Made by a program: the position numbers and the translations under genes. Shown here in pieces: positions 16,131 through 43,707 of a stretch of DNA of 48,776 bases. The notes beneath the pieces are model-generated. The model was not told the DNA's origin, did no database searches, and saw only the letters and a list, made by a program, of their open reading frames with translations. The DNA is from a virus. Taxonomy: Duplodnaviria > Caudoviricetes. Every line of letters starts with the position of its first letter. Position 1 is the first letter of the stretch. The DNA lies in the IMG/VR virus record IMGVR_UViG_3300011114_000473, positions 1 through 48,776 of that record; one strand, 5' to 3'.

Positions 16131-16844
16131 ATGACCACGGGCCTGACCTACACGACCTATGTGACGCAGATCGCGACGCTGGCCGTTGTCTCGTCCACAG
16201 ACACGGCGTTCGTCACCATCCTCCCGCAGATGATCACCTATGCGGAAAATCGGATTTACCGGGATCTCGATCTGCTTTCGACGGTCGATTCCGCGACCTA
16301 TACGATGACGCCATATCAGCGGACCGTCTCGGTTCCCGCAGGCGACTTCGTGACGCTTCAGCAGGTTAACATCATCACCCCGTCCGGAACGACAAATCCC
16401 GATCAAGGGGCGCGGAATCCCCTCATCCCCGCGACCAAGGAATATCTGGATTTCGTCTGGTCGAGCAGTTCCGGATCGGGGCTCCCGACGCTCTTTGCGA
16501 TGATCAATCAGAGCACGTTCATTGTTGGCCCTTGGCCGGATGCGAACTACACGGCGGAAGTTGTCGGAACCATCCGCCCGCAGTCGCTCAGTAGTTCCAA
16601 TACGACTACGGTCATATCGAGCCTTTTCCCCGACCTCTTCATCATGGCGTCGATGATCTATGTGTCGGGCTATCAGCGCAATTGGGGACGGCAAGCCGAC
16701 GACCCTCAGATGGCTCAATCATACGAGAACCAATATCAGCTTCTCCTCAAATCTGCCGGTGTTGAAGAACAGAGGAAGAAGTTCGCCAGTGGCGGATGGA
16801 CATCTATGTCCCCGGCCCCCGTCGCCACCCCGTCGCGGGGGTGA
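16131..16844 (+). CDS. Head-tail adaptor / tail tubular protein A-like
   Basis: ITYAENRIYRDLD, GPWPDANY and PDLFIMASM motifs; precedes the gp10-like gene. Confidence 0.7.
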   Translation: MTTGLTYTTYVTQIATLAVVSSTDTAFVTILPQMITYAENRIYRDLDLLSTVDSATYTMTPYQRTVSVPAGDFVTLQQVNIITPSGTTNPDQGARNPLIPATKEYLDFVWSSSSGSGLPTLFAMINQSTFIVGPWPDANYTAEVVGTIRPQSLSSSNTTTVISSLFPDLFIMASMIYVSGYQRNWGRQADDPQMAQSYENQYQLLLKSAGVEEQRKKFASGGWTSMSPAPVATPSRG

Positions 16845-16847
16845 TGC

Positions 16848-18896
16848 ATGCCTCACGCGATGCTGAAATTGCTGCCGGGGGTAAATCAAAACATGACCCC
16901 GACACTGAATCAGGTAGGGGTCTCAACCTCGCAACTCATCCGCTTCATGCCCGATGGGCGCGGCGGCGCGCTCGTCCAGAAGCTCGGCGGGTGGGTCAAG
17001 TTCTTCTCATCCACCATTACCTCGATCGTTCGCAACCTATGGGCCTGGGCGGACATCAACAACAATCTATGGCTGGCGGTGGGGGCGGAATCGCAACTCG
17101 CCGTCATCAGCGGCAGTGTCCTTTACGACATCACCCCGCGCTCGGCGACGGACAATGTGGCGGTCAGCGCGACCACGACCATCAACACCAATCTGGTGAC
17201 GATCACCGACGCGGGCTCGAACATCACGAGCTACGACACGGTGTTCATCAAGACGCAGATCAGCGTCGGCGGTCTTATCCTGTTCGGGCTCTATCCTTGC
17301 GAACAGGTCGGAGCGAACACCTACAACATCTATACTTACAACCTGTTAGGGCAGCCTGCACTCGCAACAGCATCGATCATGACGGGCGGCGCTGTACCGG
17401 GCTTTACGACGGTTAGCGGTTCTTCAATCGTCACGGTGACGCTGGTAGCCCATGGGTTCAAGGTCGGCGATGACTTCGCGGCGCTGGTCTCGACCACCGT
17501 GGGTGGTGTGGTGATCTTTGGGAACTATACGATAGTCACTGTCCCGACCGCCGATACGTTCACTATTCAGGCGGCCCTTGCCGCCACGTCCTCGGCCGGC
17601 CCCAGCTATATGAATGGCGGCAACGCCCGGTATCTCTACTATATCGGCATCGGCCCGCTTCCCCTCGGCACGGGCTTCGGCGTCGGCGGGTTCGGCGTCG
17701 GCGGATTTGGTTCCGGCACCGCGATCTCCGCGAATCCCGGCACGGCGGTCGGACCCGTCACCGACTGGACGCTTGACAACTTCGGCAGCCTCCTGATCGC
17801 GAACTACCCGAACGGCCCGATATTCTCGTGGGATCCGACCATCAGCCAGCCGGTCGCCACGATCTTATCCGCAGGGCCATCGGTGAACCACGGCGCGTTC
17901 GTTGCCATGCCACAGCGCCAGATCATCGCCTGGGGCTCGACGTTCAACGGCATCCAGGACCCGCTGCTCCTGCGCTGGTGCGACATCGAGGATCCCGGCC
18001 AATGGATTGCGCTGGTGACGAACCAAGCCGGGTCGTTCCGCATCCCTCGGGGCTCCAAGATCGTACAGTGCCTTCAGGGGCCGCAGCAGGGGCTTGTATG
18101 GACCGACCTCGGCATCTGGTCGATGCAGTATATCGGGCAGCCGTTCGTCTACAGCTTTCAAGAGATCGGCAACGGCTGCGGGCTCATCGGCCCCAAGGCT
18201 GCGGCGTCGGTGAACGGCGTCGTCTATTGGATGAGCCAGTCACAGTTTTTCATGCTGGCGGGCGATGGGGTTCAGCCGATCTCCTGCCCAATCTGGGACG
18301 TGATCTTTCAGGATCTTGACACCTCGAACACCGACAAGATCCGCATCGCGCCGAACAGCCGGTTCAACGAGATCTCCTGGTACTACCCGACGACCACGAC
18401 CGGCGAGGTGCAGAAGTACGTCAAATACAACACCGTCCTCGGCGTTTGGGACTACGGAACGCTCCAGCGGACGGCATGGATTAACCAGTCTGTGTTCGGT
18501 CCTCCGATCGGCGCCAAGGGTGCGGGGTACATCTACCAGCACGAGGAAGGCTACGACGATGATACCGCGCCGATGCTGCCGTCGTTCCAGACCGGCTATG
18601 CGGCGCTCAGTGAAGCGGATGTGAAGAGCTTCATCGATCAGGTGTGGCCCGATATGAAGTGGGGGACGTTCGGCGGGACGCAGAACGCCTCGGTGCAGTT
18701 GACGTTCTATGTGGCCGATTATCCGGGCGACACGCCGACCGCCTACGGGCCGTACACGCTGACCCAGGCCACGCAGTTCATCACTCCACGGTTCCGCGCG
18801 CGGTTGCTAGCGATCGAGGTTTCGGGGATGGACGCGGGGACGTTTTGGAGGATGGGTGCCACGAGATACCGCTATCAGCCGGATGGGAAATTCTGA
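16848..18896 (+). CDS. Tail nozzle / DNA stabilization protein (P22 gp10, tubular protein B-like)
   Basis: 682 aa beta-propeller-like protein; KLLPGVN start, DPLLLRWCD and GCGLIGPKA motifs, QPDGKF end. Confidence 0.8.
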   Translation: MPHAMLKLLPGVNQNMTPTLNQVGVSTSQLIRFMPDGRGGALVQKLGGWVKFFSSTITSIVRNLWAWADINNNLWLAVGAESQLAVISGSVLYDITPRSATDNVAVSATTTINTNLVTITDAGSNITSYDTVFIKTQISVGGLILFGLYPCEQVGANTYNIYTYNLLGQPALATASIMTGGAVPGFTTVSGSSIVTVTLVAHGFKVGDDFAALVSTTVGGVVIFGNYTIVTVPTADTFTIQAALAATSSAGPSYMNGGNARYLYYIGIGPLPLGTGFGVGGFGVGGFGSGTAISANPGTAVGPVTDWTLDNFGSLLIANYPNGPIFSWDPTISQPVATILSAGPSVNHGAFVAMPQRQIIAWGSTFNGIQDPLLLRWCDIEDPGQWIALVTNQAGSFRIPRGSKIVQCLQGPQQGLVWTDLGIWSMQYIGQPFVYSFQEIGNGCGLIGPKAAASVNGVVYWMSQSQFFMLAGDGVQPISCPIWDVIFQDLDTSNTDKIRIAPNSRFNEISWYYPTTTTGEVQKYVKYNTVLGVWDYGTLQRTAWINQSVFGPPIGAKGAGYIYQHEEGYDDDTAPMLPSFQTGYAALSEADVKSFIDQVWPDMKWGTFGGTQNASVQLTFYVADYPGDTPTAYGPYTLTQATQFITPRFRARLLAIEVSGMDAGTFWRMGATRYRYQPDGKF

Positions 18897-19279
18897 TGGC
18901 AGGCATCACAGATATTTTGACTTCCGCGCAGAATATCGTCACCGCGCTATCGGGCCTGCGGCAGATCATCCAATACGGCCAAGGGACGAACACCTCTGCG
19001 ACGGTGACGGCGAGCACACTGGTGACAACGGGCTCGGGGCGGCTGGTGAACTACTCGATTACGGTCAAGGGGCTGACGGGCACGATCCACGACGCGGCGA
19101 CCGTGGCGACCGCGACGGCAGCGAACGCGCTCTGCGCCACACCGAACTACCCTGGATACACAGCGGATTCGCCGCTGGTGCCGACCGGCGTATTCCCGGT
19201 GGGGGCGTTGTTTATGAACGGTCTTGTGATCAAGCCCGGCACGGGGCAATCCGTCAACGTCACATATTCGCTGGGGTGA
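18896..19279 (+). CDS. Hypothetical virion protein
   Basis: TGATG coupling; Thr-rich beta protein (MAGITDILTSAQNIVTAL...). Confidence 0.7.
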   Translation: MAGITDILTSAQNIVTALSGLRQIIQYGQGTNTSATVTASTLVTTGSGRLVNYSITVKGLTGTIHDAATVATATAANALCATPNYPGYTADSPLVPTGVFPVGALFMNGLVIKPGTGQSVNVTYSLG

Positions 19280-19283
19280 TGGG

Positions 19284-20483
19284 ATGACAGTATCACGGGA
19301 TCAAGCCATCGCATCGGCATTGCGGATCGCGAGGAAGCCGAGGGCAAGCGGAGGTGCGTCCAACGATACGCCAGCGAACCTTGATAGGTTTATGGCGGGG
19401 AACCATCCTGATGTGCCGCGAGTGCTTTATCACGGGACCGGCGTCGATAATCGCGGCACGTTCAAGATGCCCGCGTTCTTCACCTCCGCTCCGCATGGCG
19501 CGAATTGGTATGCACAAGAGCGTGGAGATAATCCTCATATCGCCCCAGTCCATCTTTCAATGAAGAACCCCTTGAATGCCACAAGCAAAGAGGGTGCTTT
19601 TAAGTTGATTGATTTTGCCAAGAAGGCGGGCGTTCATACTGAAGTGAAAGACAGCACACACGGCTGGAGTTTTCACAGCAGAGATATTCCAAAACACAGC
19701 CCGTATGATGGGGATCATCATCTGGACTTGCTTTACATCCCTGCGGTGAGGAATGCGCTACAGAAAGCTGGACATGATGGCGTGATCGCTAGCGATCCGC
19801 TGGGGAGTGACGAGATACCGACATATATCCCCCTCCACCCTCACCAGATCAAGTCCGCCACCGGCAACAACGGGGCATTTGACCCGAACGACCCTGACAT
19901 CACCAAGGCAGGCGGCGGCCCCATAGTTGCTGGCGGCCTCGCCCCGGGCGAACCCCTAGAGCCGAAGGAGCGCGTCCAGGCTGGTGGCACAAAGGTCAAG
20001 ACCCACACCGGCCCGATCCATTCCGCCGTCGCCGGTCGCACCGATCACCTTCCGATGCACGTTCCTGCCGGGGCCTATGTCCTGCCCGCCGACATCATCT
20101 CCGCCATGGGCGAAGGCAACACCATGGCGGGCTTTAAAGTGGCAAAGGATATGTTCGCGCAGCCAACTTATGGAAACGCCTCCCCAGGCGGCGGCGCTCC
20201 CTATGACCAGTACGCTCCCATGCCCTATGGGGTGAGTGTGCCGAGGGCTGCCGGCGGCGAGGTCTATCACGGCTACGCTCGCGGCCACCCCGTTGAGCCG
20301 CCCGCCGATCCCGTTCCTATCATCGCCGCTGGAGGAGAGTTCGTCATCCATCCCCGCGATGTCGCCCGAATCGGCAAGGGCAACATGGATGACGGTCACG
20401 CCATTCTCGACCACTTCGTCAAACAGATGCGCGGCAAGACGGTGAAGACCCTTCAGGGTCTACCCCCGCCGAAGAAGGATTGA
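19284..20483 (+). CDS. Putative internal virion protein carrying an ADP-ribosyltransferase (ART-PolyVal-like) domain and two GEFV-type modules
   Basis: VLYHGT, FFTS...A..YA, PVHLSMKNP, GHDGV and QIKSATGNNGAFDPNDPDI; C-terminal GRTDHLPMHVPAGAYVLPAD and AGGEFVIHP. Confidence 0.75.
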   Translation: MTVSRDQAIASALRIARKPRASGGASNDTPANLDRFMAGNHPDVPRVLYHGTGVDNRGTFKMPAFFTSAPHGANWYAQERGDNPHIAPVHLSMKNPLNATSKEGAFKLIDFAKKAGVHTEVKDSTHGWSFHSRDIPKHSPYDGDHHLDLLYIPAVRNALQKAGHDGVIASDPLGSDEIPTYIPLHPHQIKSATGNNGAFDPNDPDITKAGGGPIVAGGLAPGEPLEPKERVQAGGTKVKTHTGPIHSAVAGRTDHLPMHVPAGAYVLPADIISAMGEGNTMAGFKVAKDMFAQPTYGNASPGGGAPYDQYAPMPYGVSVPRAAGGEVYHGYARGHPVEPPADPVPIIAAGGEFVIHPRDVARIGKGNMDDGHAILDHFVKQMRGKTVKTLQGLPPPKKD

Positions 20484-20485
20484 CC

Positions 20486-21016
20486 ATGCAAGCCATCGCA
20501 CTCGTCAAATCAAATGCCCCCGCCATCAACCTGCGGGTTGGTACGCCCGACGATGTTGACGGGGTCATGGGCCTCGCCATCGCAGCGAGTAAGGAAAACG
20601 GCTTCGTCGATTCCGATCCCGCCGAGATGCTGAACGACATCTGGCCCGCGCTCAATCTCGACGCGGGCATCATGGGCGTGATCGGCGTACCGGGTCAGGC
20701 CCCCGAGGGTGCGGTCCTCCTGCGAATCGGGAAGATGTGGTACTCGAAAGCGCGGGTTCTGGAAGAGAAGGCGATCTTCGTCCATCCGGATTTCCGCAGC
20801 GCGAAGGGCGGACGGGCAAGTCGCCTCTGCGAGTTCTCCAAGCATGTCTCGGACAAGCTGGAATTGCCGTTGGTTATCGGCGTCCTGAGCAATGCCCGGA
20901 CGGATGCGAAACTGCGCCTTTACGAGCGACACTTCGGCCCCCCTGCGGGCGGCTTCTTCCTTCACAACGCCAAGACGGGTCAAGGGGCTCTTGTCCCCGC
21001 CGTCGCTCACGGATAG
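20486..21016 (+). CDS. GNAT-fold protein (P22 gp14-like position)
   Basis: LRVGTPDDV start, FVHPDFRS and KLRLYER motifs; immediately upstream of the MGG- pilot protein. Confidence 0.75.
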   Translation: MQAIALVKSNAPAINLRVGTPDDVDGVMGLAIAASKENGFVDSDPAEMLNDIWPALNLDAGIMGVIGVPGQAPEGAVLLRIGKMWYSKARVLEEKAIFVHPDFRSAKGGRASRLCEFSKHVSDKLELPLVIGVLSNARTDAKLRLYERHFGPPAGGFFLHNAKTGQGALVPAVAHG

Positions 21017-21025
21017 GGCCAGAAA

Positions 21026-24000
21026 ATGGGCGGCAAAACCACACAATCGACCTCACAGGTCCAGATCCCGCCGGACGTTCTGGCGCGATACAACTCGGTC
21101 AACGCCAGAGCGGAAGATACTGCTTCAGCGCCGTTCCAGTCGTATAGCGCGGATCCCAACGCCTTCGTGGCCCCTCTGACGGAAACGCAGGTCGCGGGCG
21201 TCAACAACACGAACGCTGCCAGCGGGATGGCGCAGCCCTATTACAACGCGGCGACAGGTCTAACCGTTTCAGGCGCTCAGTCCGCCGATCCAAGCCAGAT
21301 CAATGCGGGAGCGATCAATCAATACCTCTCCCCCTTCCTGGGCGATGTCTATGCCGCGACCTTGGCGGGTGAGAACCAGCAGAACCAGATCCAGGCTTCG
21401 GGGCTTAAGGGCGAGGCGATCAAGGCGGGCGCTTTTGGCGGAGATCGAGCGGGAGTTGCACAGGCGAATCTCGCCTATAATCAGAACCTCGCCAACACTC
21501 AGAGAAACGCGGAACTCCTGAACACCGGCTACAACACCGCTCTTGGCACAGCCCAGCAGCAGCAGGGCGTTGACCTCGGCGCTCGGCAGCAGAACCTTGC
21601 CCGATTGACCAAAGCGGGTGAACAGATCGCAGGATTGGGAACTACATCCCAGCAAGCGGCGCTTACCGGGGCGCAGGCTCAACTCGCAGCAGGCACGGCG
21701 GAGCAGCAGACCCAGCAGGCGGGCCTGTCGGCTCTCTACAACCAATTCCTTCAGGAGCAGGGCTACCCGTTCCAAGTGTCGCAATTCCTCGCCAACATCG
21801 CCGAGGGTACGGGCGCGCTTTCGGGCAGCACCACAAACACGACCACTCCCGGCGCCGCATTCTCCGACATCCGTCTCAAGGACGACGTGCAGGAGATCGG
21901 CAAGACCTTCGACGGGCAGAAGATCATCCGTTTCCGTTACAAGGGCTCGCCCAAGACACAGATCGGCCTCGTGGCGCAGGATGTCGAAAAGCATCATCCG
22001 CATGCTGTCGGGTTGGCATCTGGCTATAAGACCGTCGATTACGATGAAGCGACACGCCCCGCGGCGAATAAGGGGCATTATGCCAGTGGCGGGTTAGTTC
22101 CTGCGGCGGATGGCGGAACGGTGACGCTCTCCCGGTCTGGCGAGGGCTACGCCTCGGGTGGCGTCACTGGTTATGACCCAGCGGTCTATTCCGACATCCT
22201 ATCCCGCCAACAGGGGATGTATGGGAAGGGCGGCCTTAGCGGTGCGCAGATTTTTGGTGGCCCGCATGGGATCGCCATTTCTTCCGGCCCGAAACGCGAT
22301 CTGGTCACATCGAAGTACCTGCCGCAGGCGCAGCCCAGCACCGCCTCCCAAGTCATGGATGGTGCGGATCAGGCTCGGAAGTTCGCGGGCACGGCCAAGA
22401 GCGGATACCAAGGATACAAGGATCTCAAGGACTGGTGGAACAAGCCCAACGAAGATGACATCACCGCAAAGAAGGGCTTCAACGACGACAACAGCGGCAA
22501 CCTGATCGGGTCCGAATCCGATAGCGCCGCCGATATTGATGCCAGCCTCGCCGATGAAGGCGGTGGTGGCATGATGGGCGGCGTCATGGGCGGCGGGCCG
22601 ACGAGCGGCTTCGGCGGCTGGAAGCGTGGGGGCCTTGTTCCCCACGGCTACGCCGGCGGCGGAGACGTAGACCCCTATGCGCTGAAAGACGGTGACACCT
22701 CTTATGTGCCGCAAGATGAAGGTGGGGGCAATGGTGGTGCAGATCATGGCGGTCTGAAGTCGGCCCCTCCTCCGAAGGTCCAGCCCAAGGATCCCGCTGG
22801 TGGTGCGATGAAGGGTGCCATGACCGGCGCGACTTCGGGTGCGATGTTCGGTCCCTGGGGTGCTGTCATCGGTGGTGTTGGCGGCGCGCTTTATGGCGGG
22901 TTGAGCAACAGCAACCGGGGCGGACGGATCAACCGCTATTCGGGCGGGCTCGTTCGTCATGGATATGATGACGGCGGGGATGTGGATCCTGACGCGTCCC
23001 CCGAAACTCAAGCCCCTCGACCATGGCGTCTCTTCGATCCCATCGGCCCATCGTATAGCGAGCGATCCGCCGCAGCCGCTGAGGCGGATCGTCAGCGCCG
23101 CGACGCGCAGGAGGCTATCGATTCGACCACGGTGAACCCTAGCCCCACAGATTGGCAGCAACAATTTGCGGATGATGCGAAACGAAGCCGTGCCGACGCG
23201 CGCGCGCGCCGTGAAGATGGACTCACAGGGCCGCCGGCACGCGATTCTCCAGCGCCGACGAAAGAGCCGCCCGTTGCAGCGCCAGCCCCGGCACGCGATT
23301 CTCCAGCGCCGACGAAAGAGCCGCCCGTTGCAGCGCCTCCGGTTGCGAAAAACGCTCCCGCCCCTCGTGCGCTCTTCGTCCCGCCGTTTGAAAAGTCTTC
23401 CGGTCTTGGTGGCGCAGAACGCCCGGTATCTCGACCGCTGGCTGCGGGTGCGTCCCCGCATTCGGACAAGCCTGGATTCCTTTCTCAACTCGGCGATTTC
23501 GTGACGAGCGAGAAAGGCATCATCCCGATCCTCACCGGCATTGGAGCCATGGCCTCGAGCCCGAGCCGTTACGGATGGGCAGCCGCTCTACAAGGTCTTG
23601 GTGCTGGCGCTCAAGCCTATGAAGGCGTCCAGAACCAGATGCAGAAGCGGGAACAGTCTGAGGCGCAGACACAGGGCTTCCGTCTCGCCAATGTCAAAGG
23701 ATCCATTACCCCGCCCATCGGTCAGAAGACCTTGGTCCGTGATCCCGCCACCGGGAACCCTGTCTATATGTCCAATAACGAGTTCTATGAGAGAACCCGC
23801 GCCGGAGAACGCATCCAAGTTCTGGGCGATGGGCCGGGTGCGACAGGCGGAGGAATCCCAACGGGTGGCGATCAGACCACTCCGGGCGCGCAGAGCTACG
23901 CCCCGAAGTCACAGGCGCCGACAGTCACCCCCGGCGTTACCTATGACGACAAATCCCGTCAATCGGCGCTTCGGGAAATTCCGATGGGCCCCGGACAGCA

Positions 24001-24679
24001 GGCGTTGAGCGACAAGACCTACGGCGAAGTGATGCAGGCGGCGGATATTGGCCGCCAAGGTCGCCCCATGATGCTGGAGACGGTCAGTCAGATCGCGAGC
24101 GCCAACCAAAACGCCGCGCTCGGAACTCCTGGCGCATCCTTTAGCGGCCGCGCGGCGGCGACGAACGTGCTCAATACGCTCGCCCGAGCCATGGGGTTGA
24201 ACGCTCCTTTCGGGGAACAGGACGAGCAGAAGGCGATAGTTGACAAGGTTCGCACGCTGGAAGCGGCCCTCCTGGCGAATGGCGGCGATCAGCGCGCCAT
24301 CTCCGCCATTCAAGTCCTCATGGGCACATACCCGAGCCTTGACATGCCACCAGCCGCAGCGGCGGAGCTTGCGGCTCAATTGATGACGGCGAGGCAGCGG
24401 ACCATCGACCGCGCGATCCATATGCGCCAATACAAGGACGATGCCGACACCTCTAATGGCTCTGTTATGAACGAAGCAACCGACTTTGAACGCGCCCAGG
24501 CCGATCGGTATCAGCGCGAGACCAAGATCATCGGCAACCTCATCTTGGACCCGTCTGGGAACGGGGCAAAGGCGCTGGAGAGTATGCGCCGCGGTGAAGC
24601 GTCACCTAGACAGATCGATAATTGGTTCACCAAACATTACGGGCTTAGTGGCATGAGCCGGTATTTCAGGGCGGATTAG
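21026..24679 (+). CDS. Large DNA ejection/pilot protein with an internal peptidase S74 (intramolecular chaperone) domain
   Basis: MGGKTTQSTS start, Gln/Ala-rich helices, FSDIRLK...IGLVAQDVE...YKTVDY (about 21860-22050), glycine-zipper segments and many xxxGG motifs. Confidence 0.75.
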   Translation: MGGKTTQSTSQVQIPPDVLARYNSVNARAEDTASAPFQSYSADPNAFVAPLTETQVAGVNNTNAASGMAQPYYNAATGLTVSGAQSADPSQINAGAINQYLSPFLGDVYAATLAGENQQNQIQASGLKGEAIKAGAFGGDRAGVAQANLAYNQNLANTQRNAELLNTGYNTALGTAQQQQGVDLGARQQNLARLTKAGEQIAGLGTTSQQAALTGAQAQLAAGTAEQQTQQAGLSALYNQFLQEQGYPFQVSQFLANIAEGTGALSGSTTNTTTPGAAFSDIRLKDDVQEIGKTFDGQKIIRFRYKGSPKTQIGLVAQDVEKHHPHAVGLASGYKTVDYDEATRPAANKGHYASGGLVPAADGGTVTLSRSGEGYASGGVTGYDPAVYSDILSRQQGMYGKGGLSGAQIFGGPHGIAISSGPKRDLVTSKYLPQAQPSTASQVMDGADQARKFAGTAKSGYQGYKDLKDWWNKPNEDDITAKKGFNDDNSGNLIGSESDSAADIDASLADEGGGGMMGGVMGGGPTSGFGGWKRGGLVPHGYAGGGDVDPYALKDGDTSYVPQDEGGGNGGADHGGLKSAPPPKVQPKDPAGGAMKGAMTGATSGAMFGPWGAVIGGVGGALYGGLSNSNRGGRINRYSGGLVRHGYDDGGDVDPDASPETQAPRPWRLFDPIGPSYSERSAAAAEADRQRRDAQEAIDSTTVNPSPTDWQQQFADDAKRSRADARARREDGLTGPPARDSPAPTKEPPVAAPAPARDSPAPTKEPPVAAPPVAKNAPAPRALFVPPFEKSSGLGGAERPVSRPLAAGASPHSDKPGFLSQLGDFVTSEKGIIPILTGIGAMASSPSRYGWAAALQGLGAGAQAYEGVQNQMQKREQSEAQTQGFRLANVKGSITPPIGQKTLVRDPATGNPVYMSNNEFYERTRAGERIQVLGDGPGATGGGIPTGGDQTTPGAQSYAPKSQAPTVTPGVTYDDKSRQSALREIPMGPGQQALSDKTYGEVMQAADIGRQGRPMMLETVSQIASANQNAALGTPGASFSGRAAATNVLNTLARAMGLNAPFGEQDEQKAIVDKVRTLEAALLANGGDQRAISAIQVLMGTYPSLDMPPAAAAELAAQLMTARQRTIDRAIHMRQYKDDADTSNGSVMNEATDFERAQADRYQRETKIIGNLILDPSGNGAKALESMRRGEASPRQIDNWFTKHYGLSGMSRYFRAD
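23234..23337 (+). repeat. Perfect 50-bp direct repeat, 54-bp period (PARDSPAPTKEPPVAAP x2)
   Basis: Copies at 23234-23283 and 23288-23337. Confidence 0.9.
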
Positions 24680-24681
24680 TC

Positions 24682-26985
24682 ATGGACACCACTGACGACG
24701 ACCTCGGGCCGCTTGCTGGTTTTAGCCCTGCCGCACTCCCTGTTTCCGAGGTTGCCGGTGGCGACGACGACCTTGGGCCACTTGCTGCGTTTGTGCCAGG
24801 GCAGGGGAACACCAAGCCACCACCCGGCGGGAATAAGCCACCACCAAAGGTCGGTCCGGAACCCGGTGACGATACCAACTACGCCGAGATGGGCTGGAGC
24901 CCCGTCCTCAACTCGGCCATCGGGAATTTCGGCAAGAGTGGCAGGAAAGAACTGTCCGCGGTTTATGATACCGTTGCCCATCCCATCGAGACGGCGAAGG
25001 CCATCGGGCAGATCGGAACGGGGATTGGCTCCAAGGTTTCCGGTTATTTCGGCGCGCAGCAGGATCCGAAGCAGAAAGCCACAGATGAGGCTGCCGCAAA
25101 CGCGATAGGCGAACATTTCAGCAATTATTTTGAGCCGGGGGGCCTGAAGAAGGCCATCGCCAATGATCCGGTCTCGGTGCTTATGGATTTCAGCACCGTG
25201 GCGTCAGGCGGGCAACTGGCTCTTGGCCGCGCTCCCGGCTTGATTGGCAAGGCCGCGCGGGTCGCGGGCAGCGTGGGATCGGCGGTTGATCCGATTCAAA
25301 ACGTATGGCGAGTGGCGAAGGTCGGGGCATACCTGCCGCAGAAGTTGGTCAAAGCGGTTGTCCCTCACTTCCAGGCTGCGGGGACGGGCGTGGATGCTAA
25401 CGCATTTAAGCTGGCTGGTGAATTTGGCGCTTCTTCGGATCCGGTTGTAAAAGAAGCCTTCCGGATGGGCGTCAAAGACAAGACATCAGGCTACACGCTC
25501 GTTGATAAGGTCGATGATGGGATTAGAGACATCGCCGACGACAGAGGTGCCGCGTATGTCAAGCAGGCGAGGCGAGAGGGAGTGAAGGGTGCTGCCCCCG
25601 GCACGATGCCCGCTCTGGATTGGCGGCCAATTAATGACGCCGTGTCCAAAATCAAAAACGAAATTTACGCGACTGACCAATTCGGAAGGGTCGTCGAAAA
25701 TGTGCCCGAGGCAATCCCCGCCTACAACAAAATCGTGGCAGAAATAGCAAACCGGCAAGCGTCACTACCGGGATCGACACATCATACTCTTGAGGGGTTC
25801 GACGGCCTCAAGAAAAACATCAGTTCCGTGATCGATAGCGCAGGCCCGAATCAGTCTCAACGCTGGGTCGGAACGGCGATGTATAACGCTGTTCTCGATG
25901 AAATTACCAAGAAGCATCCCGGCTACGCCGCGATTATGAAAGAGTATCAGGACGCATCAAAGCAGCTGAAGGATCTCCGGGCAAGCCTTGGTGCTGGCAA
26001 GTCTGGCAATGCGGCGGCGGCAAGCGGACAGATGGTCAAGATATTGCGGCAATACAAAAAGGGCGATCCAGGCAATTTGATCGCTGCGCTTGCGGCAAAA
26101 GATCCCACAATTATCCCGATGCTGACCGGTCGTGCGTTAAGCGAAGTACTCCCCGGCGGCTTGCGCGGATTTTTCGAGACCCCCGCCGCTATCGCCGCTT
26201 TCATGGTTCATCCGGCATTGCCTCTTAGTCTCGTTGGAAGTTCCCCCCGCATTATGGGGGAACTCAATTATCGCGCTGGGCAGGCAACAAGATTGCCGGG
26301 GCAAGTAACGCCGTTAAGAGGCGACCTAGCTTATCAGGGGGCGGCGCTGACGCATGAGCAGCAGCAACCAAATTCCCCCACGCAGCAGCGGCCGCAGGTT
26401 CTTCCTGTGCAGACGCAGAAGCCCGTCCTTTCGGGGGCGGCATTGCCTCGGAACATGAGGAACAACAATCCGGCGAACATCGAGGATGGGCCGTATGCCC
26501 GATCCCAACCGGGCTATGCTGGCGGTGATGGCCGCTTCGCCCGATTCCAATCCCAGGCCCATGGGGACGCTGCGGGGGATGGGCTTCTTCGCCGCTACGG
26601 ATCTATGGGGCGCGATACGCCGGAGAAGGTCGTCACGAAGTGGTCCCCCTACGAAGACAATCCGGCCGCATCTGTCCGCGCCTCAATCGCCCGTGTCGCA
26701 TCGGCGCTCGGCGTTCGCGCGGACGACCGGATCGACATGATGAACCCGGAGATCCGCAAGAAGGTCTATGCGGCCATTGTGCGTGGCGAGGCAAATACCG
26801 GTGGTCGTATCCAGCGCGCGACCGGTGGCAAGGTTCAGCGGGTCAACCACGAGGCCGAGGCGGCAAAACTTGTCAGAGCGGCTGATGCGTCGCGCAAGCG
26901 GCTCGGCGAGCGAACGGAGCCCTTGCTTGATAGTTCGGACACCATGGTCGCTCACGCCCTGGCGGTGGTCAATAAAGCGATCTGA
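24682..26985 (+). CDS. DNA ejection protein with a C-terminal lysozyme-like (RNNNPxNI) domain
   Basis: 767 aa; RNNNPANI...RFARF...KWSP..DN muralytic-like motif near 26450-26795; SSPRIMGE; terminal NTGG and RATGG motifs. Confidence 0.7.
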   Translation: MDTTDDDLGPLAGFSPAALPVSEVAGGDDDLGPLAAFVPGQGNTKPPPGGNKPPPKVGPEPGDDTNYAEMGWSPVLNSAIGNFGKSGRKELSAVYDTVAHPIETAKAIGQIGTGIGSKVSGYFGAQQDPKQKATDEAAANAIGEHFSNYFEPGGLKKAIANDPVSVLMDFSTVASGGQLALGRAPGLIGKAARVAGSVGSAVDPIQNVWRVAKVGAYLPQKLVKAVVPHFQAAGTGVDANAFKLAGEFGASSDPVVKEAFRMGVKDKTSGYTLVDKVDDGIRDIADDRGAAYVKQARREGVKGAAPGTMPALDWRPINDAVSKIKNEIYATDQFGRVVENVPEAIPAYNKIVAEIANRQASLPGSTHHTLEGFDGLKKNISSVIDSAGPNQSQRWVGTAMYNAVLDEITKKHPGYAAIMKEYQDASKQLKDLRASLGAGKSGNAAAASGQMVKILRQYKKGDPGNLIAALAAKDPTIIPMLTGRALSEVLPGGLRGFFETPAAIAAFMVHPALPLSLVGSSPRIMGELNYRAGQATRLPGQVTPLRGDLAYQGAALTHEQQQPNSPTQQRPQVLPVQTQKPVLSGAALPRNMRNNNPANIEDGPYARSQPGYAGGDGRFARFQSQAHGDAAGDGLLRRYGSMGRDTPEKVVTKWSPYEDNPAASVRASIARVASALGVRADDRIDMMNPEIRKKVYAAIVRGEANTGGRIQRATGGKVQRVNHEAEAAKLVRAADASRKRLGERTEPLLDSSDTMVAHALAVVNKAI

Positions 26986-27043
26986 TTGGGACATTGACTA
27001 CTCTCTGGAACGTGCCATTTTTGTATGCGGAGGCACGTTGCAA

Positions 27044-27310
27044 ATGAACACATCAGATCAGGTTGTCGATGGCATAGGAAAAGCCTCGGCGTTGTTTGCT
27101 GTCGCGTTCGTCTGTGTTGGACTGTTCGCCCATTATCCGCTGTTTTTCGTGGCTGCGGGCGTCGTCTTCGTTCTGGGTAAGATTGTCCAATCAATACCCT
27201 TTGCTTCTGCTGCGGTCATGGGGATCGCAAAGTTCGTGTTCTGTAGCCTGTATGGATTTGGGGCCTGTTGGTTCTTGGTGTTTCTGTTGTCTTTGATCCA
27301 GCCCCAATAG
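27044..27310 (+). CDS. Small integral membrane protein (moron-like)
   Basis: 88 aa, about 3 hydrophobic segments, T-rich atypical codons, GGAGG RBS, upstream TTGACT-N16-CATTTT. Confidence 0.6.
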   Translation: MNTSDQVVDGIGKASALFAVAFVCVGLFAHYPLFFVAAGVVFVLGKIVQSIPFASAAVMGIAKFVFCSLYGFGACWFLVFLLSLIQPQ

Positions 27311-27350
27311 CCAGTCTTAATCCCAGGCGGGTTTCGTGTTAATATTCGTC

Positions 27351-27446
27351 GCCTTTCCTCGGCGGAGAGGCCCGCAAGTTTCCGCTCCTAAGTCTCCCCG
27401 GTGGACGACGATGGCGCATCCTCTCCGAGGATCCCTTCGTCATGGC
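27351..27446 (+). promoter_or_regulatory. Structured 5' leader, copy A (CCYCGGYG hairpin loops plus an RBS-sequestering stem)
   Basis: GCCTTTCC/GGAGAGGC hairpin; GACGATGG/CCTTCGTC and ATCCTC/GAGGAT stems over the SD; about 45/57 identical to copy B. Confidence 0.7.
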
Positions 27447-28488
27447 CTCATCCTACACCACCAACAAGCGCATCGAGAAACCCGCCCATAACGACGATGT
27501 CGATACATGGGAAGTTCCCGTTAACAGCAATTCGGACATTCTCGACAAGGCGTTGGGAGGCACCACTTCCCTGGTGGTTACGGGCCTGACGGGGACCACC
27601 ACGCTTGCCGCAGCGGACTATCGATCTCTCATCCTCGCGATCTCGGGCGTTCTCACCGCGAATGTCACCTACTCGATCCCTTCAGGCGTCGGTGGCTCTT
27701 GGGTCGTGGTCAACACGACGACCGGCGCATTCAATGTCGTCCTTGCCTCGGCAGGCGGCGGAACATCGGTCACGACCGTCCAGGGAGGCACGTCGATCCT
27801 CTTCTGCAACGGGACGAATGTCGCCCAGGCGGTGAACCAGTCCCAGATTTCAGCCGCGATGGCCCCCGTGGTTTCGGCAGCAACCATTCTTGCTGGCATG
27901 GATCTTCTGGCCGCCTCGGGCGCGACCTTCGGCAGCAACGTGACGGTCACGGGGAATGAAACGGTTACGGGGACGCTCGGCCTCGGTGGTCTTCTTACGC
28001 TGAACACGGGCGCGAACTTCGCCGCACTCTCCGCTGGCGCAGCTCTTGTACTCGACGGGTCCAAGAACGCTGTCGCCATCGCGCCCGGCACGTCGGGGAA
28101 TGTGCTTACATCGACCGGAACCGGTTGGGCTTCCTCGGTGGTTCCCATCCTGCCGCGTTACGGAACCCAATGTATCAAGAATCCTGCGGTGGCAGGAACG
28201 ATCACCGTACAGGCCCACGGTCTCGGCGCGATCCCTGATGAAGTGTCCTTCTATCTTGAATGCCTAGTCATCGACGCCGGATATACGGTCGGCCAGCGGC
28301 TCTATTTCCAATCGGGCGCGCAGGATCCTCTGTCTCAAGGCGTCACAATCATGGCGGACGCTACGAACACGTCGATTGCCATCGGTGGTGGTGGGCTTTT
28401 CTACGTCCAGAACGGCTCGACCGCCGCTCTCTCATCGCTCACAGCCGCAAGCTGGAAGGTCGTCGTCACCCCGCAGATCAACTCATAA
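27442..28488 (+). CDS. Tail fibre / tail needle-like structural protein
   Basis: MASSYTTNKRIEKPA...TWEVPVNSN..ILDKALGG head-binding-type N-terminus; GTSGNVLTSTGTG fibre repeat. Confidence 0.75.
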   Translation: MASSYTTNKRIEKPAHNDDVDTWEVPVNSNSDILDKALGGTTSLVVTGLTGTTTLAAADYRSLILAISGVLTANVTYSIPSGVGGSWVVVNTTTGAFNVVLASAGGGTSVTTVQGGTSILFCNGTNVAQAVNQSQISAAMAPVVSAATILAGMDLLAASGATFGSNVTVTGNETVTGTLGLGGLLTLNTGANFAALSAGAALVLDGSKNAVAIAPGTSGNVLTSTGTGWASSVVPILPRYGTQCIKNPAVAGTITVQAHGLGAIPDEVSFYLECLVIDAGYTVGQRLYFQSGAQDPLSQGVTIMADATNTSIAIGGGGLFYVQNGSTAALSSLTAASWKVVVTPQINS

Positions 28489-28490
28489 TG

Positions 28491-28526
28491 AGAACATAAG
28501 TAACTTATGTAACTTTCTTATGTTCT
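28491..28526. promoter_or_regulatory. AT-rich nested palindrome upstream of the capsid operon
   Basis: AGAACATAAG...CTTATGTTCT outer inverted repeat and ACATAAG-TAA-CTTATGT inner inverted repeat. Confidence 0.5.
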
Positions 28527-28568
28527 TTTCGTGTGATCTGTGGTAGCAACTTAACTGTGCCTGATGGC

Positions 28569-28664
28569 ATCTCCCCTCGGTGTGGGAGATTTCTCATCCC
28601 CGGCCCCTAGTCGCCCCGGTGCGTGACAATGGTGCTTCCTCTCAAGAGGAGCCATTGTCATGGC
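28569..28664 (+). promoter_or_regulatory. Structured 5' leader, copy B
   Basis: ATCTCCC/GGGAGAT hairpin with a CTCGGTGT loop; TGACAATGG/CCATTGTCA and TCCTC/GAGGA stems cover the SD and the A of ATG. Confidence 0.7.
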
Positions 28665-29289
28665 GAATACGAACGCTCCGTTCGGTTTCAGGCAGTATTT
28701 CGGCGGCTCTGGCGGAGCCCCCACCTTCTCCGTCGGCTCCTATCGGATCGCGTCAACTGACACGACCAAGGTATTCTCGGGCGATGTTGTCCAGCCGGTC
28801 GTTTCGACGGCGACGGGCTACATCACGCAGGGCACCGCCAGCACCACGGTCATCACGGGCATCTTTACCGGGTGCACATACCTCTCCGTTTCCCAGAAGC
28901 GGACGGTTTGGAACTCCTACTGGCCCGGTGCCGACGCAAGCGGGGATGTCACCGCGTATGTGGTCGATGACCCGAACGCGCAGTTCGTGGTTCAGGGCGG
29001 CTCAACGACTTTCAACATCGGCGGCACGCTGACGACCTGGACTACGTCCCCGGTCGGTCAATACGCGATGTACACGGTCGGAAGCGGCAACACCTCGACC
29101 GGGCAGTCCGGATCGTACCTGAGCGCCCTCGGCACGACGGTCACCTATCCCTTCATCGTCCGCGGCTTGATCGACTTCCCGCCCGGCGGACCTGGGGCTG
29201 ACCCCCTCTCCGCCTACAACTGGGTTGTCGTCGGCTTCAACGACCAGCTTCTGCGCTCGAATGGCGCAGGACCGACTGGCATCTCTTAA
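28660..29289 (+). CDS. Capsid decoration/cement protein
   Basis: MANTNAPFGF start and YVVDDPNAQFVVQ motif; directly precedes the major capsid gene; strongly biased codons. Confidence 0.75.
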   Translation: MANTNAPFGFRQYFGGSGGAPTFSVGSYRIASTDTTKVFSGDVVQPVVSTATGYITQGTASTTVITGIFTGCTYLSVSQKRTVWNSYWPGADASGDVTAYVVDDPNAQFVVQGGSTTFNIGGTLTTWTTSPVGQYAMYTVGSGNTSTGQSGSYLSALGTTVTYPFIVRGLIDFPPGGPGADPLSAYNWVVVGFNDQLLRSNGAGPTGIS

Positions 29290-29302
29290 GGAGTAGGGAA
29301 AA

Positions 29303-30217
29303 ATGGCTGTCAATCTTTCTGCCATCAAAGACCTTCTCCTCCCCGGTCTTCGTGGGGTTGAAGGCAAGTACGAGATGATCCCGTCTCAGTACGACAAGAT
29401 CTTCACCAAGCACAATTCCAAGATGGCCTTGGAGCGCACCGCTGAGATGCGCTACCTCGGGCTTGCCCAACTCAAGACCGAAGGCGGCCAGACCGCTTTC
29501 GACAACAGTGCTGGCGAGCGGTTCGTCTATAACCAAGAGCATACGGAAATCGCTCTCGGTTACGCCATCACCCGCAAGGCGGTGGACGACAACCTCTACA
29601 AGACCCAGTTCCACCCGTCGAACCTTGGCCTGATCGAGTCCTTCCAGCAGACCAAGGAAATCTTCGGCGCAAACACGCTGAACACCGCGACGACCTACAA
29701 CGCCAACATCGGCGGTGACGGTGTCGCGCTCTGCTCGGCGAGCCATCCGATCGACGGCGCGACGGTCGCCAACATCCCCTCGGTGGCGCAGGATCTCAAC
29801 GAAGCATCGCTGCTCAACAGCATGATCGCGGTCCGTACCAACTTCAAGGATCAGGCTGGCCTCAAGGTCTTCGCCCGCGCCCGGAAGCTGGTCGTTCCTC
29901 CCCAGCTTGAGCCGGTGGCGATCCGTCTGACCAAGACCGAGCTTCGGCCCGGCACGGCGGACAACGACGTCAACGCGCTCTTCCAGACCGCTGGCGGATT
30001 GCCCGAAGGTTACATGGTCAACGACTTCCTGACCTCGTCCTATGCGTGGTTCCTGCTGACCAATATCGACGGGCTCTCCTACATGGAGCGCATCAAGTTC
30101 GAGACGGACATGCAGGTCGATTTCGTGACCGACAACCTGCTGGTGAAGGGCTACGAACGCTACTCTTTTGGCTATTACAATTGGAGATCAATATTTGGTT
30201 CATTCCCCACTTCTTGA
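29303..30217 (+). CDS. Major capsid protein (Mu gpT-like HK97 fold)
   Basis: KDLLLPGL, GDGVALCSASHP, KLVVPPQLE, GTADNDVN and YERYSFGYYNWRSIFGS; AAGGAG RBS. Confidence 0.92.
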   Translation: MAVNLSAIKDLLLPGLRGVEGKYEMIPSQYDKIFTKHNSKMALERTAEMRYLGLAQLKTEGGQTAFDNSAGERFVYNQEHTEIALGYAITRKAVDDNLYKTQFHPSNLGLIESFQQTKEIFGANTLNTATTYNANIGGDGVALCSASHPIDGATVANIPSVAQDLNEASLLNSMIAVRTNFKDQAGLKVFARARKLVVPPQLEPVAIRLTKTELRPGTADNDVNALFQTAGGLPEGYMVNDFLTSSYAWFLLTNIDGLSYMERIKFETDMQVDFVTDNLLVKGYERYSFGYYNWRSIFGSFPTS

Positions 30218-30253
30218 TAGAATGTGGAATACAACCAAGTAATGGAGCCCCTG

Positions 30254-30958
30254 ATGCGCGAAACGATAACTCAGCAAAGACTACGGGAGTTGGTGTCATA
30301 CGACGCCGACACCGGAATCTTTACTTGGGTTGCTAAATGGCGCGGTATTCTTACCGGCCACGAAGCTGGCTCTGTTGATCCGAATGGGTATCGCGTCATT
30401 AGGCTCGACAAAACCGACTACCTCGCGCAAAGGCTGGCGTGGTTCTGGGTGCGTGGATCGTGGCCTCGCCTGATTCGATTTCAGAATGGCGAGAGGGCAG
30501 ACTGCCGGATCGAGAATCTGTGTGAGGGCTTTTATCTCACGACAAAGCATGATTCCCGGACGAAAGAAGGCCGCGCGTCCTACCAGCTTGAATATCGTGC
30601 GGCACGGCGAGAAGTATTCTCGGCCAAGCAGCGCGAGCGCAAATACGGCATCACGCTCGCCGAATACTCCGAGAAGGTCGCCGCTCAGGGCAATCTCTGC
30701 GCCATCTGCGGCAAGCCGGAAACGGAGTGTCGCGGGGGCAAGTTGAAGGCGCTCGGGGTTGACCATAACCACGAGACAAATGAGATCCGCGATCTCCTTT
30801 GCACGGCTTGCAACAAGCTGATCGGCCTCGCCAACGAAGACCGGGACGTTCTTCTCTCGGCCATCAAGTACCTCGATCGGCATTCGGGCGAGGCTGTCGT
30901 TTCCCCTCTCTACCGGGTAACTCCCGGCGTCGCACGCGGCGAAACAGGAAAGGTATAG
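30254..30958 (+). CDS. Free-standing homing endonuclease: degenerate HNH N-domain fused to an endonuclease VII domain
   Basis: ITQQRLRELVSYDADTGIFTW...RLAW...NGERADCRIENL, then KYGITL..Y....QGNLCAICG...VDHNH.T..IRDLLC..CN..IG. Alternative start at GTG 30224. Confidence 0.85.
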   Translation: MRETITQQRLRELVSYDADTGIFTWVAKWRGILTGHEAGSVDPNGYRVIRLDKTDYLAQRLAWFWVRGSWPRLIRFQNGERADCRIENLCEGFYLTTKHDSRTKEGRASYQLEYRAARREVFSAKQRERKYGITLAEYSEKVAAQGNLCAICGKPETECRGGKLKALGVDHNHETNEIRDLLCTACNKLIGLANEDRDVLLSAIKYLDRHSGEAVVSPLYRVTPGVARGETGKV

Positions 30959-35646: not shown

Positions 35647-36150
35647 ATGGCCTGGGCCTCACAATCCGGCAGGGCAAGAACCAGTCCCAGCAATCCGCAG
35701 GCGCATGCGATCTGCCAGCGTTGCGGATTCCGCTATAACCACGTCGATCTCAGTTGGCAGTTCGACTACCGCGGGACCGCCCTTCAGAACCTGCGTATTC
35801 TGGTCTGCCGCCCTTGCTATGCCCAGCCTCAAGAGCAGTTGCGGGCCATCGTAATCCCGGCCGATCCGGTGCCGATCCAGAATCCGATGATCGAGTATTT
35901 CGAGGCCTACGAGACCGACAATCGCGTCACGTCCGGGCAAAACACGACCGACCCATTGACCGGCCTTCCCGTGATCCAAGGCGACACCCGAACCACCCAG
36001 AACGACGCCGTTCGCGTGACGCAGCAGACGGGCGAGCCTCCGGGTGGATTGAACCAACAGCCCGGTACGGATACCAACGCGCCCGGTAATGACGATCCGG
36101 GCCTGCCGTATGGGAATACAAACGTGCCGAAAACGGGGCCGCTAACATGA
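35647..36150 (+). CDS. Conserved Zn-finger hypothetical protein
   Basis: AICQRCGFRY...ILVCRPCY..PQEQL. Confidence 0.75.
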   Translation: MAWASQSGRARTSPSNPQAHAICQRCGFRYNHVDLSWQFDYRGTALQNLRILVCRPCYAQPQEQLRAIVIPADPVPIQNPMIEYFEAYETDNRVTSGQNTTDPLTGLPVIQGDTRTTQNDAVRVTQQTGEPPGGLNQQPGTDTNAPGNDDPGLPYGNTNVPKTGPLT

Positions 36151-38851: not shown

Positions 38852-38953
38852 GCCGGTGTGGCGAAACTGGTAGACGCGCTCGACCTGGGATCGAGTGGGG
38901 GAAGGTTGTGAAGGCCGCGCCCCCTGCGGGTTCAAGTCCCGTCACCGGCACCA
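38852..38953 (+). tRNA. Atypical class II tRNA: Leu-type body, TGG (Pro) anticodon, C33, 30-nt variable region, encoded CCA
   Basis: Acceptor GCCGGTG/CACCGGC; D arm GCG-AAACTGGTAGA-CGC; anticodon stem CTCGA/TCGAG with loop CCTGGGA; T arm GCGGG-TTCAAGT-CCCGT; ACCA end. Confidence 0.85.
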
Positions 38954-42955: not shown

Positions 42956-43707
42956 AGCACAACCCCCGAAGCCGCAGCCCATTCCGCAGCCCATTCCAGC
43001 GCCATCTTCGCCGCAAACCCGCCGCCGCTGTCATCGCCCGGCCTGTCCCCCTTTCTGATCATCAAGAACCACTGTTCGGCGGGCCGTTTGCTGTTCTTCT
43101 CCATCGTCTCTACGTCCACATGACGGATATTGGCGATGGTGCCGACAAGACAGGCGCACTCGCCGGTATAGGCCGAACCGTCAATCTTGCCGTCCCGCAG
43201 CGCCGCGACGAGCCCAGGCACCTCGGCGCGGTTCTGCGTGAGGATCATCCAGTAGTCGGCCTTGAAGCTATTCAGGTCGGCATCGCTCAGGACGGCAGCG
43301 TTCAGGACGGCACCGTTCAGGACGGCACCGTTCAGGACGGCATCGCGCAGGTCGGCACCGTTCAGGACGGCACCGCGCAGGACGGCACCGTTCAGGACGG
43401 CATCGCGCAGGTCGGCACCGTTCAGGACGGCACCGCTCAGGACGGCACCGCGCAGGTCGGCATCGCGCAGGACGGCACCGCGCAGGTCGGCATCGCGCAG
43501 GACGGCACCGCGCAGGACGGCACCGCGCAGGACGGCACCGCGCAGGTCGGCATCGCGCAGGACGGCACCGCGCAGGACGGCAACCTTAACCGCTGCGCCT
43601 AGCTGCACTCCAAGGCTCTGGCTCTCAAACCGTGCGTCGATTTCGACACTGACGGCAGGCATCCAGGCCCAGCGTTTCTTGATTTCAAACTGCATGGTTT
43701 TTTCCAT
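42952..43707 (-). CDS. Pentapeptide repeat protein
   Basis: About 21 A(V/D)L(R/N/S)(G/D) repeats; C-terminal GKIDGSAYTGECACLVGTIA domain; start uncertain (43728/43707/43695). Confidence 0.9.
   Translation of the reverse strand: MEKTMQFEIKKRWAWMPAVSVEIDARFESQSLGVQLGAAVKVAVLRGAVLRDADLRGAVLRGAVLRGAVLRDADLRGAVLRDADLRGAVLSGAVLNGADLRDAVLNGAVLRGAVLNGADLRDAVLNGAVLNGAVLNAAVLSDADLNSFKADYWMILTQNRAEVPGLVAALRDGKIDGSAYTGECACLVGTIANIRHVDVETMEKNSKRPAEQWFLMIRKGDRPGDDSGGGFAAKMALEWAAEWAAASGVVL
43271..43582 (-). repeat. 15-bp tandem repeat array encoding the pentapeptides
   Basis: Units such as GCAGGACGGCACCGC and TCAGGACGGCACCGT. Confidence 0.9.

Follow-up and report, generated by a model that had tools for sequence, protein, structure and literature searches.

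A twin-loop RNA leader at the front of the capsid operon of uncultured phages: a candidate translational switch with a second copy before a tail-fibre-like gene

The MS2 coat operator is an autogenous operator bound by a phage protein, synthesis of the P22 scaffold is autoregulated, and in lambdoid nut/N pairs two sites follow one protein. The sections of PMC10690425 consulted describe a further autogenous phage operator, the T4 gene 32 pseudoknot, and the Rfam phage leaders GP20-a and GP20-b. In the Com/mom system of phage Mu, as given in the accessible sections of PMC6483171, the start signals become accessible when a hairpin lying upstream of an inhibitory structure is bound by a phage protein. 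The guanidine-II (mini-ykkC) RNA, in the excerpts available (PMC10351892, PMC5486947, PMC5558903), carries matching CG loops on covarying stems separated by a linker and is a translational ON switch operating via competing helices. The leader described here is built like guanidine-II, with two covarying stems capped by matching loops. Like GP20-a, GP20-b and Mu-gpT-DE, as far as the available descriptions go, it is a conserved structured RNA by phage head genes, and it has no Rfam match.

The window, the whole 48,776-nt stretch of DNA that was analysed, is virus record IMGVR_UViG_3300011114_000473 (83% complete), with terminase, portal, GroES, tail-tube, ejection and capsid genes. Near-complete public matches of its DNA came from lake-water and viral metagenomes of two studies; no RNA data sets were among the public runs listed with window DNA. 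The window capsid protein is 88% identical to GenBank MW202675 and 35-40% identical to HTVC023P, CRP-901 and DSL-LC04 (40% to HTVC023P), with a sub-threshold Mu-like gpT match. The model of the 28660 protein is all-beta (pLDDT 82); its Foldseek matches to T1 and TW1 capsid chains were weak (E 0.07-0.11), with none at E<=0.001, and an Atlas lead of 0.83 was to cement families. The labels fibre and decoration rest on weak matches and are used here as putative. An HNH and endonuclease VII gene (30224-30958, +) lies directly behind the capsid gene. The large terminase (6418-9111, +) has 897 aa and two separate profile stretches, compared with about 556 aa in relatives, possibly reflecting an intein or insertion. 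An ART-PolyVal domain protein (19284-20483, +) adjoins a weak GNAT-like protein (20480-21016, +), each with matches in 19 of 21 relatives. Repeats comprise a 15-nt repeat array (43211-43660), an exact 50-nt duplication within the 21026 gene (23234-23337) and three 43-nt repeats (1430-1567).

Copies A (27351-27444) and B (28569-28662) of the leader both end at the ATGGC of an open reading frame (Table 1). The initial annotation had aligned 27391-27446 with 28609-28664 up to the start codons of a fibre and a capsid decoration gene. That alignment was reproduced with 45 of 57 columns identical; its score was 72 against 36 for the next best (z 9.9) among 1535 ATG-anchored 56-mers of the window, and the start codons were found as described. 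The GAGGA Shine-Dalgarno sequence (SD), described as buried, is paired in both folds with a probability of 0.99-1.00, and the proposed compensatory pair GACGA/TCGTC versus GACAA/TTGTC does replace G-C by A-U. The second difference in the stem, ATCCTC/GAGGAT versus TTCCTC/GAGGAG, is also real but had been misread as consistent; both sides differ, with A-U replaced by U-G. Competition of the GTC...GAC hairpin for the GAC strand, attributed to copy B only, is present in B, but the family register gives it in A too (27407-27409). The hairpins placed about 40 nt upstream were located as CCTCGGCG (27357) and CCTCGGTG (28575), at a distance of 39 nt upstream of the CCCCGGTG loops. One more helix, P2a, had been overlooked. 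One public contig, from a run whose study is shared with a possible source run, covers 27340-29389 without difference, which places A and B on one molecule. The family model matched only these two copies in the window (next best E 1.6). The promoter-like site of copy A has 7/12 consensus matches, under the family bar of 8/12, and a tool-based promoter scan listed none at 27320-27345; copy B has no good promoter match (4/12). Upstream of copy B, an AT-rich inverted repeat followed by T's (28490-28531) is terminator-like or operator-like.

Table 1. Features of the two leader copies and the genes behind them
Feature	Position	Strand	Basis	Detail
Copy A promoter-like site	27320..27345	+	inferred	TTAATC-17-TAATAT, TG before -10; ends 5 nt before P1
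Copy A P1 hairpin	27351..27371	+	model alignment, family covariation	loop UCGGC (27359-27363), C-G closed
Copy A P2	27384..27417	+	model alignment, forced fold, covariation	P2a 27384-27388 with 27413-27417, one mismatch, then internal loop; P2b loop CCGGU (27398-27402)
Copy A burying helix	27407..27444	+	lowest-energy fold	GACGA/UCGUC outside; UCCUC/GAGGA inside (SD 27427-27431); start codon 27442
Tail-fibre-like gene, 348 aa	27442..28488	+	phrog_12796, E 2.3e-6	behind copy A
Copy B P1 hairpin	28569..28590	+	fold, model alignment	loop UCGGU (28577-28581), bulged U 28583
Copy B P2	28603..28635	+	model alignment, forced fold, covariation	P2a 28603-28607 with 28631-28635, one mismatch; P2b loop CCGGU (28616-28620), bulged C 28622
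Copy B burying helix	28625..28662	+	lowest-energy fold	GACAAUGG/CCAUUGUC outside; anti-SD/GAGGAG (28646-28651) inside; start codon 28660
Decoration/cement-like gene, 209 aa	28660..29289	+		behind copy B; usual target of the leader family
Major capsid protein gene	29303..30217	+	phrog_371, E 4e-10	13 nt behind decoration-like gene

The set of 28660-protein relatives came from IMG/VR (80 of 513, 80 of 444 and 80 of 592), GTDB contigs (9) and metagenomes (80 of 513), and a two-loop pattern scan gave at least 120 matches. Among the 120 matches listed, 83 precede a decoration-like gene, and neither a fibre nor a capsid protein was found behind the other 37. The 322 leaders collected reduced to 188 distinct leaders and to 147 below 90% likeness; a parser recognized two hairpins in 119 of 149 leaders, and the family model and alignment A3 were built from 100. 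Of 51 related genomes or records, 41 have a leader of about 95 nt ahead of the decoration-like/major-capsid operon, and 18 of 21 near-complete genomes carry it. Each of the 41 positive records contains one copy, no second copy being found in any of them. The family model gave 63 matches in 96 loci, always at the start of the decoration-like gene, and 51 matches in 80 metagenome loci, where 41 of 76 leaders were new. In three cultured distant relatives only 17-53 nt precede the decoration-like gene, without the leader.

The initial annotation had not recognized the leader as a named family, and Rfam scans of the window, the subregion and relatives agree with this. At the gathering threshold, Rfam 15 gave only a tRNA match in the whole window (38852-38950, +; 49 bits, without an ARAGORN call); the best E in 27200-28800 was 0.96, and 18 related loci gave 0 matches. 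No description of this motif turned up in the literature listings and excerpts that were searched. The leader may be among the 8495 unnamed candidate viral RNA models of Fremin 2023 (IMG/VR); the part of those tables that was searched held no match and gives no sequences. As judged from homologous sequences, both copies belong to a real conserved RNA family that is not catalogued in Rfam and is typical of a large group of uncultured phages, at the front of their capsid operon.

Covariation, which had been proposed from the two copies, was recovered in the leaders of homologues for P1, P2b and P2a. Together these helices had 268 both-side changes in 100 leaders versus 92 in shuffled alignments (0 of 500 shuffles as high) and 45-82 in slid controls, both kinds of control being without kinship correction. 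A3 was drawn from leaders with parsed P1 and P2b, so the pairing of these two helices is partly selected; P2a was not a criterion, and it pairs in 76% of cells, with its own partners giving -6.0 kcal versus -4.1 kcal for swapped partners (sd 0.17). The metagenome set had 166 both-side changes versus 47 shuffled in an alignment fitted to the model. G-U cells exceeded A-C cells (194 versus 28), which marks the sense-strand RNA, and the C-G pair closing the loop was present in 100/100 leaders for P1 and 97/100 for P2. By eye, variant leaders L318 and L331 consist of two abutting hairpins that keep both loops, without P2a or a clear outer helix; L521 contains an inserted stretch. Sequence comparison shows P1, P2a and P2b to be maintained by compensatory change, and the leader structure is well supported.

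The closing strand of P2 can also pair with the spacer and start codon, making P2 and the burying helix mutually exclusive. Of 90 leaders with GGAG, 84 have an anti-SD 4-14 nt ahead of it, compared with 22.8 expected. For the outer helix, pairing was 84% in the consensus register, where covariation was absent, and 71% with 16 both-side changes versus 8.8 in the register of the initial annotation; free of register, own strands gave -7.3 kcal versus -6.7 for swapped (sd 0.15) and -4.5 for shuffled ones. Covariation of this putative SD- and AUG-burying helix is thus weakly supported. In predicted ensembles of 100 leaders the outer helix was dominant in 74 and P2a in 17, the median P2b probability was 0.00, and the SD was paired in 99; the outer duplex of copy B was the strongest of the 100. 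Opening the ribosome-binding site (RBS) was predicted to cost 14.0 kcal in free leaders and 10.7 kcal with P2b forced, compared with 9.3 kcal at 22 other window starts. For copy A the corresponding free and forced values were 14.4 and 12.3 kcal, and for copy B 20.4 and 13.2 kcal. In the folds inspected, formation of P2 still leaves the SD inside a short hairpin. For naked RNA the prediction is therefore a preference for the buried state, even though P2 is conserved; selection for a helix that is disfavoured at equilibrium suggests a transient or stabilized state. Overall, the switch logic is moderately supported.

The top non-pairing signal in the alignment connected the two loops at position 4 of each (z 10.2). 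The two bases were identical in 111 of 111 pentaloop pairs, 11 of them non-G, where 90.5 identities were expected, a count that leaves out two misparsed rows, tetraloop rows and unparsed leaders and includes three rows read by eye. Agreement at position 5 was at chance (56 versus 58.3 expected), and position 4 tracking without position 5 argues against simple copying between the loops. YCGG loops account for 100 of the 111 pairs; CG is invariant in A3, and position 4 takes all four bases. A quick protein tree gave minimum numbers of changes of 3 for CCGUU, 3 for ACGAU, 2 for ACGC and 2 for GCGC, although phages may exchange whole leaders as units, in which case independent changes may be overcounted here. 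Among new metagenome leaders, ACGAU occurred twice (L463, L469), CCGCU once (L521) and GCGCC once (L513). By eye, CG is altered in one loop of L495 and L509 and lost in most loops of one subfamily (L472, L473, L479, L488, L494, L496). Loop 2 lies 37-50 nt from the start codon. The tandem loops had been suggested to bind a protein or to pair with each other. Behaviour as though one factor is shared by both loops was upheld, but Watson-Crick pairing beyond the CG core is disfavoured, since CCGUU/CCGUU and ACGAU/ACGAU cannot form flanking pairs and one subfamily lacks CG. Identity without complementarity fits one reader for both loops better than kissing, and the loop sequences point to one reader binding both.

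Promoter-like signals were found upstream of 85 of 116 leaders (12.2 expected) and terminator-like signals upstream of 58 of 116 (2.6 expected); this enrichment just upstream suggests that the leader probably forms the 5' end of a transcript of its own. All 21 relatives have the scaffold, 15485-homologue, decoration and capsid genes in this order. Unlike in any of them, the window has a tail-tube-to-fibre block (16131-28488) between the 15485 gene and the decoration gene, the left junction of which was bridged in 4 of 4 public runs. Fibre homologues occur in 14 of 21 relatives, far from the capsid operon, with no leader before any of the 14; a direct search for such loci gave 3, none with a model match. 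Among 189 leaders copy B is the closest to the last 56 nt of copy A and is not the closest to its first 40, which fits duplication followed by stem turnover. From these comparisons the fibre copy appears peculiar to this rearranged phage and was seen here only. A conserved role in fibre versus capsid stoichiometry, along the lines of the capsid tuning offered in the initial annotation, is consequently not supported, fibre genes being leaderless in relatives and the leader single in positive records. Between the ejection gene and copy A lies an 88-aa hydrophobic ORF (27044-27310, +) with a promoter-like TTGACT upstream; it resembles a moron and may have severed the fibre gene from upstream translation.

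The reader would be a phage protein, probably of the structural module, the candidates being the scaffold-like 14522 protein, the 15485 protein and the CxxC-CxxC protein at 35647-36150 (+). The last has a basic N-terminal arm and occurs in 21 of 21 relatives; it had no Pfam match, no solved relative and no residue tracking loop type. The 15485 protein had no Pfam match and no PDB fold at E<=0.001, and its relatives are viral and uncharacterised. In 12 structural-module proteins only weak columns tracked loop type, and these were absent in some variant lineages, so that this comparison yielded no reader. No early regulator or non-structural family common to most genomes was found in an ORF set from which filtering had dropped some true genes. 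By eye, no consistent site for extra matching loop hairpins or an antisense partner was seen in the window and 21 relatives, of which four were covered up to 60 kb.

The reading favoured here, tentatively and at somewhat less than an even chance, is that the leader is a translational ON switch of the decoration/major-capsid operon, opened by a factor on both loops. In the unbound leader the SD, spacer and start codon would be buried, as the folds predict. Binding of a factor to the two matching loops would stabilize P2 against the burying helix and make the ribosome-binding region less tightly structured, such that capsid synthesis from a host-type promoter might be delayed until the factor binds. 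In the rearranged genome a second copy now stands ahead of the fibre gene and would place it under the same control.

The same loop data would fit a twin operator for a feedback repressor. Translation would be permitted by P2, the first fold to arise as the RNA is transcribed, and would be shut off once both loops were occupied by a phage protein such as unassembled decoration, capsid or scaffold protein. Feedback repression is known for T4 gp32 (PMC10690425, in the sections consulted), and in leaders L318 and L331 two loops are retained and SD pairing is weak. We nevertheless consider repression unlikely; the conformer displaying loop 2 has the more open RBS, and a naked RNA already predicted to be closed would make a repressor redundant. 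A function of the loops in transcription or RNA stability, whether by antitermination like that of nut/boxB or put or by protecting the 5' end, is also rather improbable; SD pairing would then only dampen translation. Such a role would be in keeping with the 38 of 85 promoter-matched leaders whose hairpins begin 3-10 nt downstream of the -10 box, with the long operon and with two sites following one protein, as in lambdoid nut/N pairs, but the constant distance from loop 2 to the start codon and the strand common to P2 and the burying helix tie the leader to translation, and no second copy stands at other promoters in the positive records. A signal in the DNA itself, either a cruciform or activator sites at a late promoter, would account for the adjoining promoter-like site; the sense-strand excess of G-U over A-C and the overlap with the SD make it extremely improbable.

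Two further readings dispense with a protein that binds the loops. In a folding-timed or pseudoknot switch without a trans reader, the CGG of loop 2 would pair with the conserved CCG ahead of the start codon, while the linker would take up loop 1. Loop 2 and the downstream CCG are pairable in 94% of cells, and the match is longer in the L071/L075 group; this pairing shows no covariation, however (2 both-side changes versus 1.1 shuffled), CCG is retained in most loop variants, copy B has UUG there, and the following of loop 2 by loop 1 is left unexplained, so we give this reading little credence. A guanidine-II-like small-molecule riboswitch, its loops kissing via CG and binding two ligands, would match the two covarying stems, matching CG loops, linker and SD platform described in the available parts of PMC10351892 and PMC5486947, as well as the invariant CG of A3. 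It is very unlikely given that the loops are C-G-closed pentaloops rather than G-C-closed ACGR tetraloops, that position 4 may be any base, that one subfamily lacks CG, and that the genes controlled are structural. A broader proposal, to which only a small probability is assigned, is a portable riboswitch-like twin-loop sensor gating capsid synthesis, with both loops cooperatively binding a host metabolite or specificity-switching readers. Reader specificities (YCGG, CCGU, ACGA, ACGC, GCGC, CCGC) would then have switched repeatedly, and recruitment to the fibre gene would mark the module as portable.

Under the favoured reading of an ON switch, the leader would be a compact and testable site at which capsid synthesis is controlled in a large group of uncultured aquatic phages, distant relatives of HTVC023P. 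Co-changing loop pairs are natural specificity variants that may be used for reader identification, and loop variants could yield orthogonal RNA-protein switches. The second copy illustrates the reuse of a regulatory leader in a rearranged genome.

Compared with guanidine-II as presented in the sources consulted, the leader has C-G-closed YCGGY loops in place of G-C-closed ACGR tetraloops, and it precedes a decoration-like gene in most of the matches listed, whereas guanidine-II controls SugE-like or guanidine carboxylase genes. With the T4 gene 32, P22 scaffold and MS2 operators it would share a leader structure read by a phage protein that sets output; those operators repress, and none is described in the consulted material with two loops changing together. 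In its proposed working the leader is most like Mu Com/mom, which likewise has an inhibitory helix over the SD and start codon, a helix that is only predicted here. As far as the accessible description goes, Com/mom uses one hairpin, a CCCC zinc-finger reader and a DNA-modification gene, while the leader presents two co-varying loops ahead of capsid genes.
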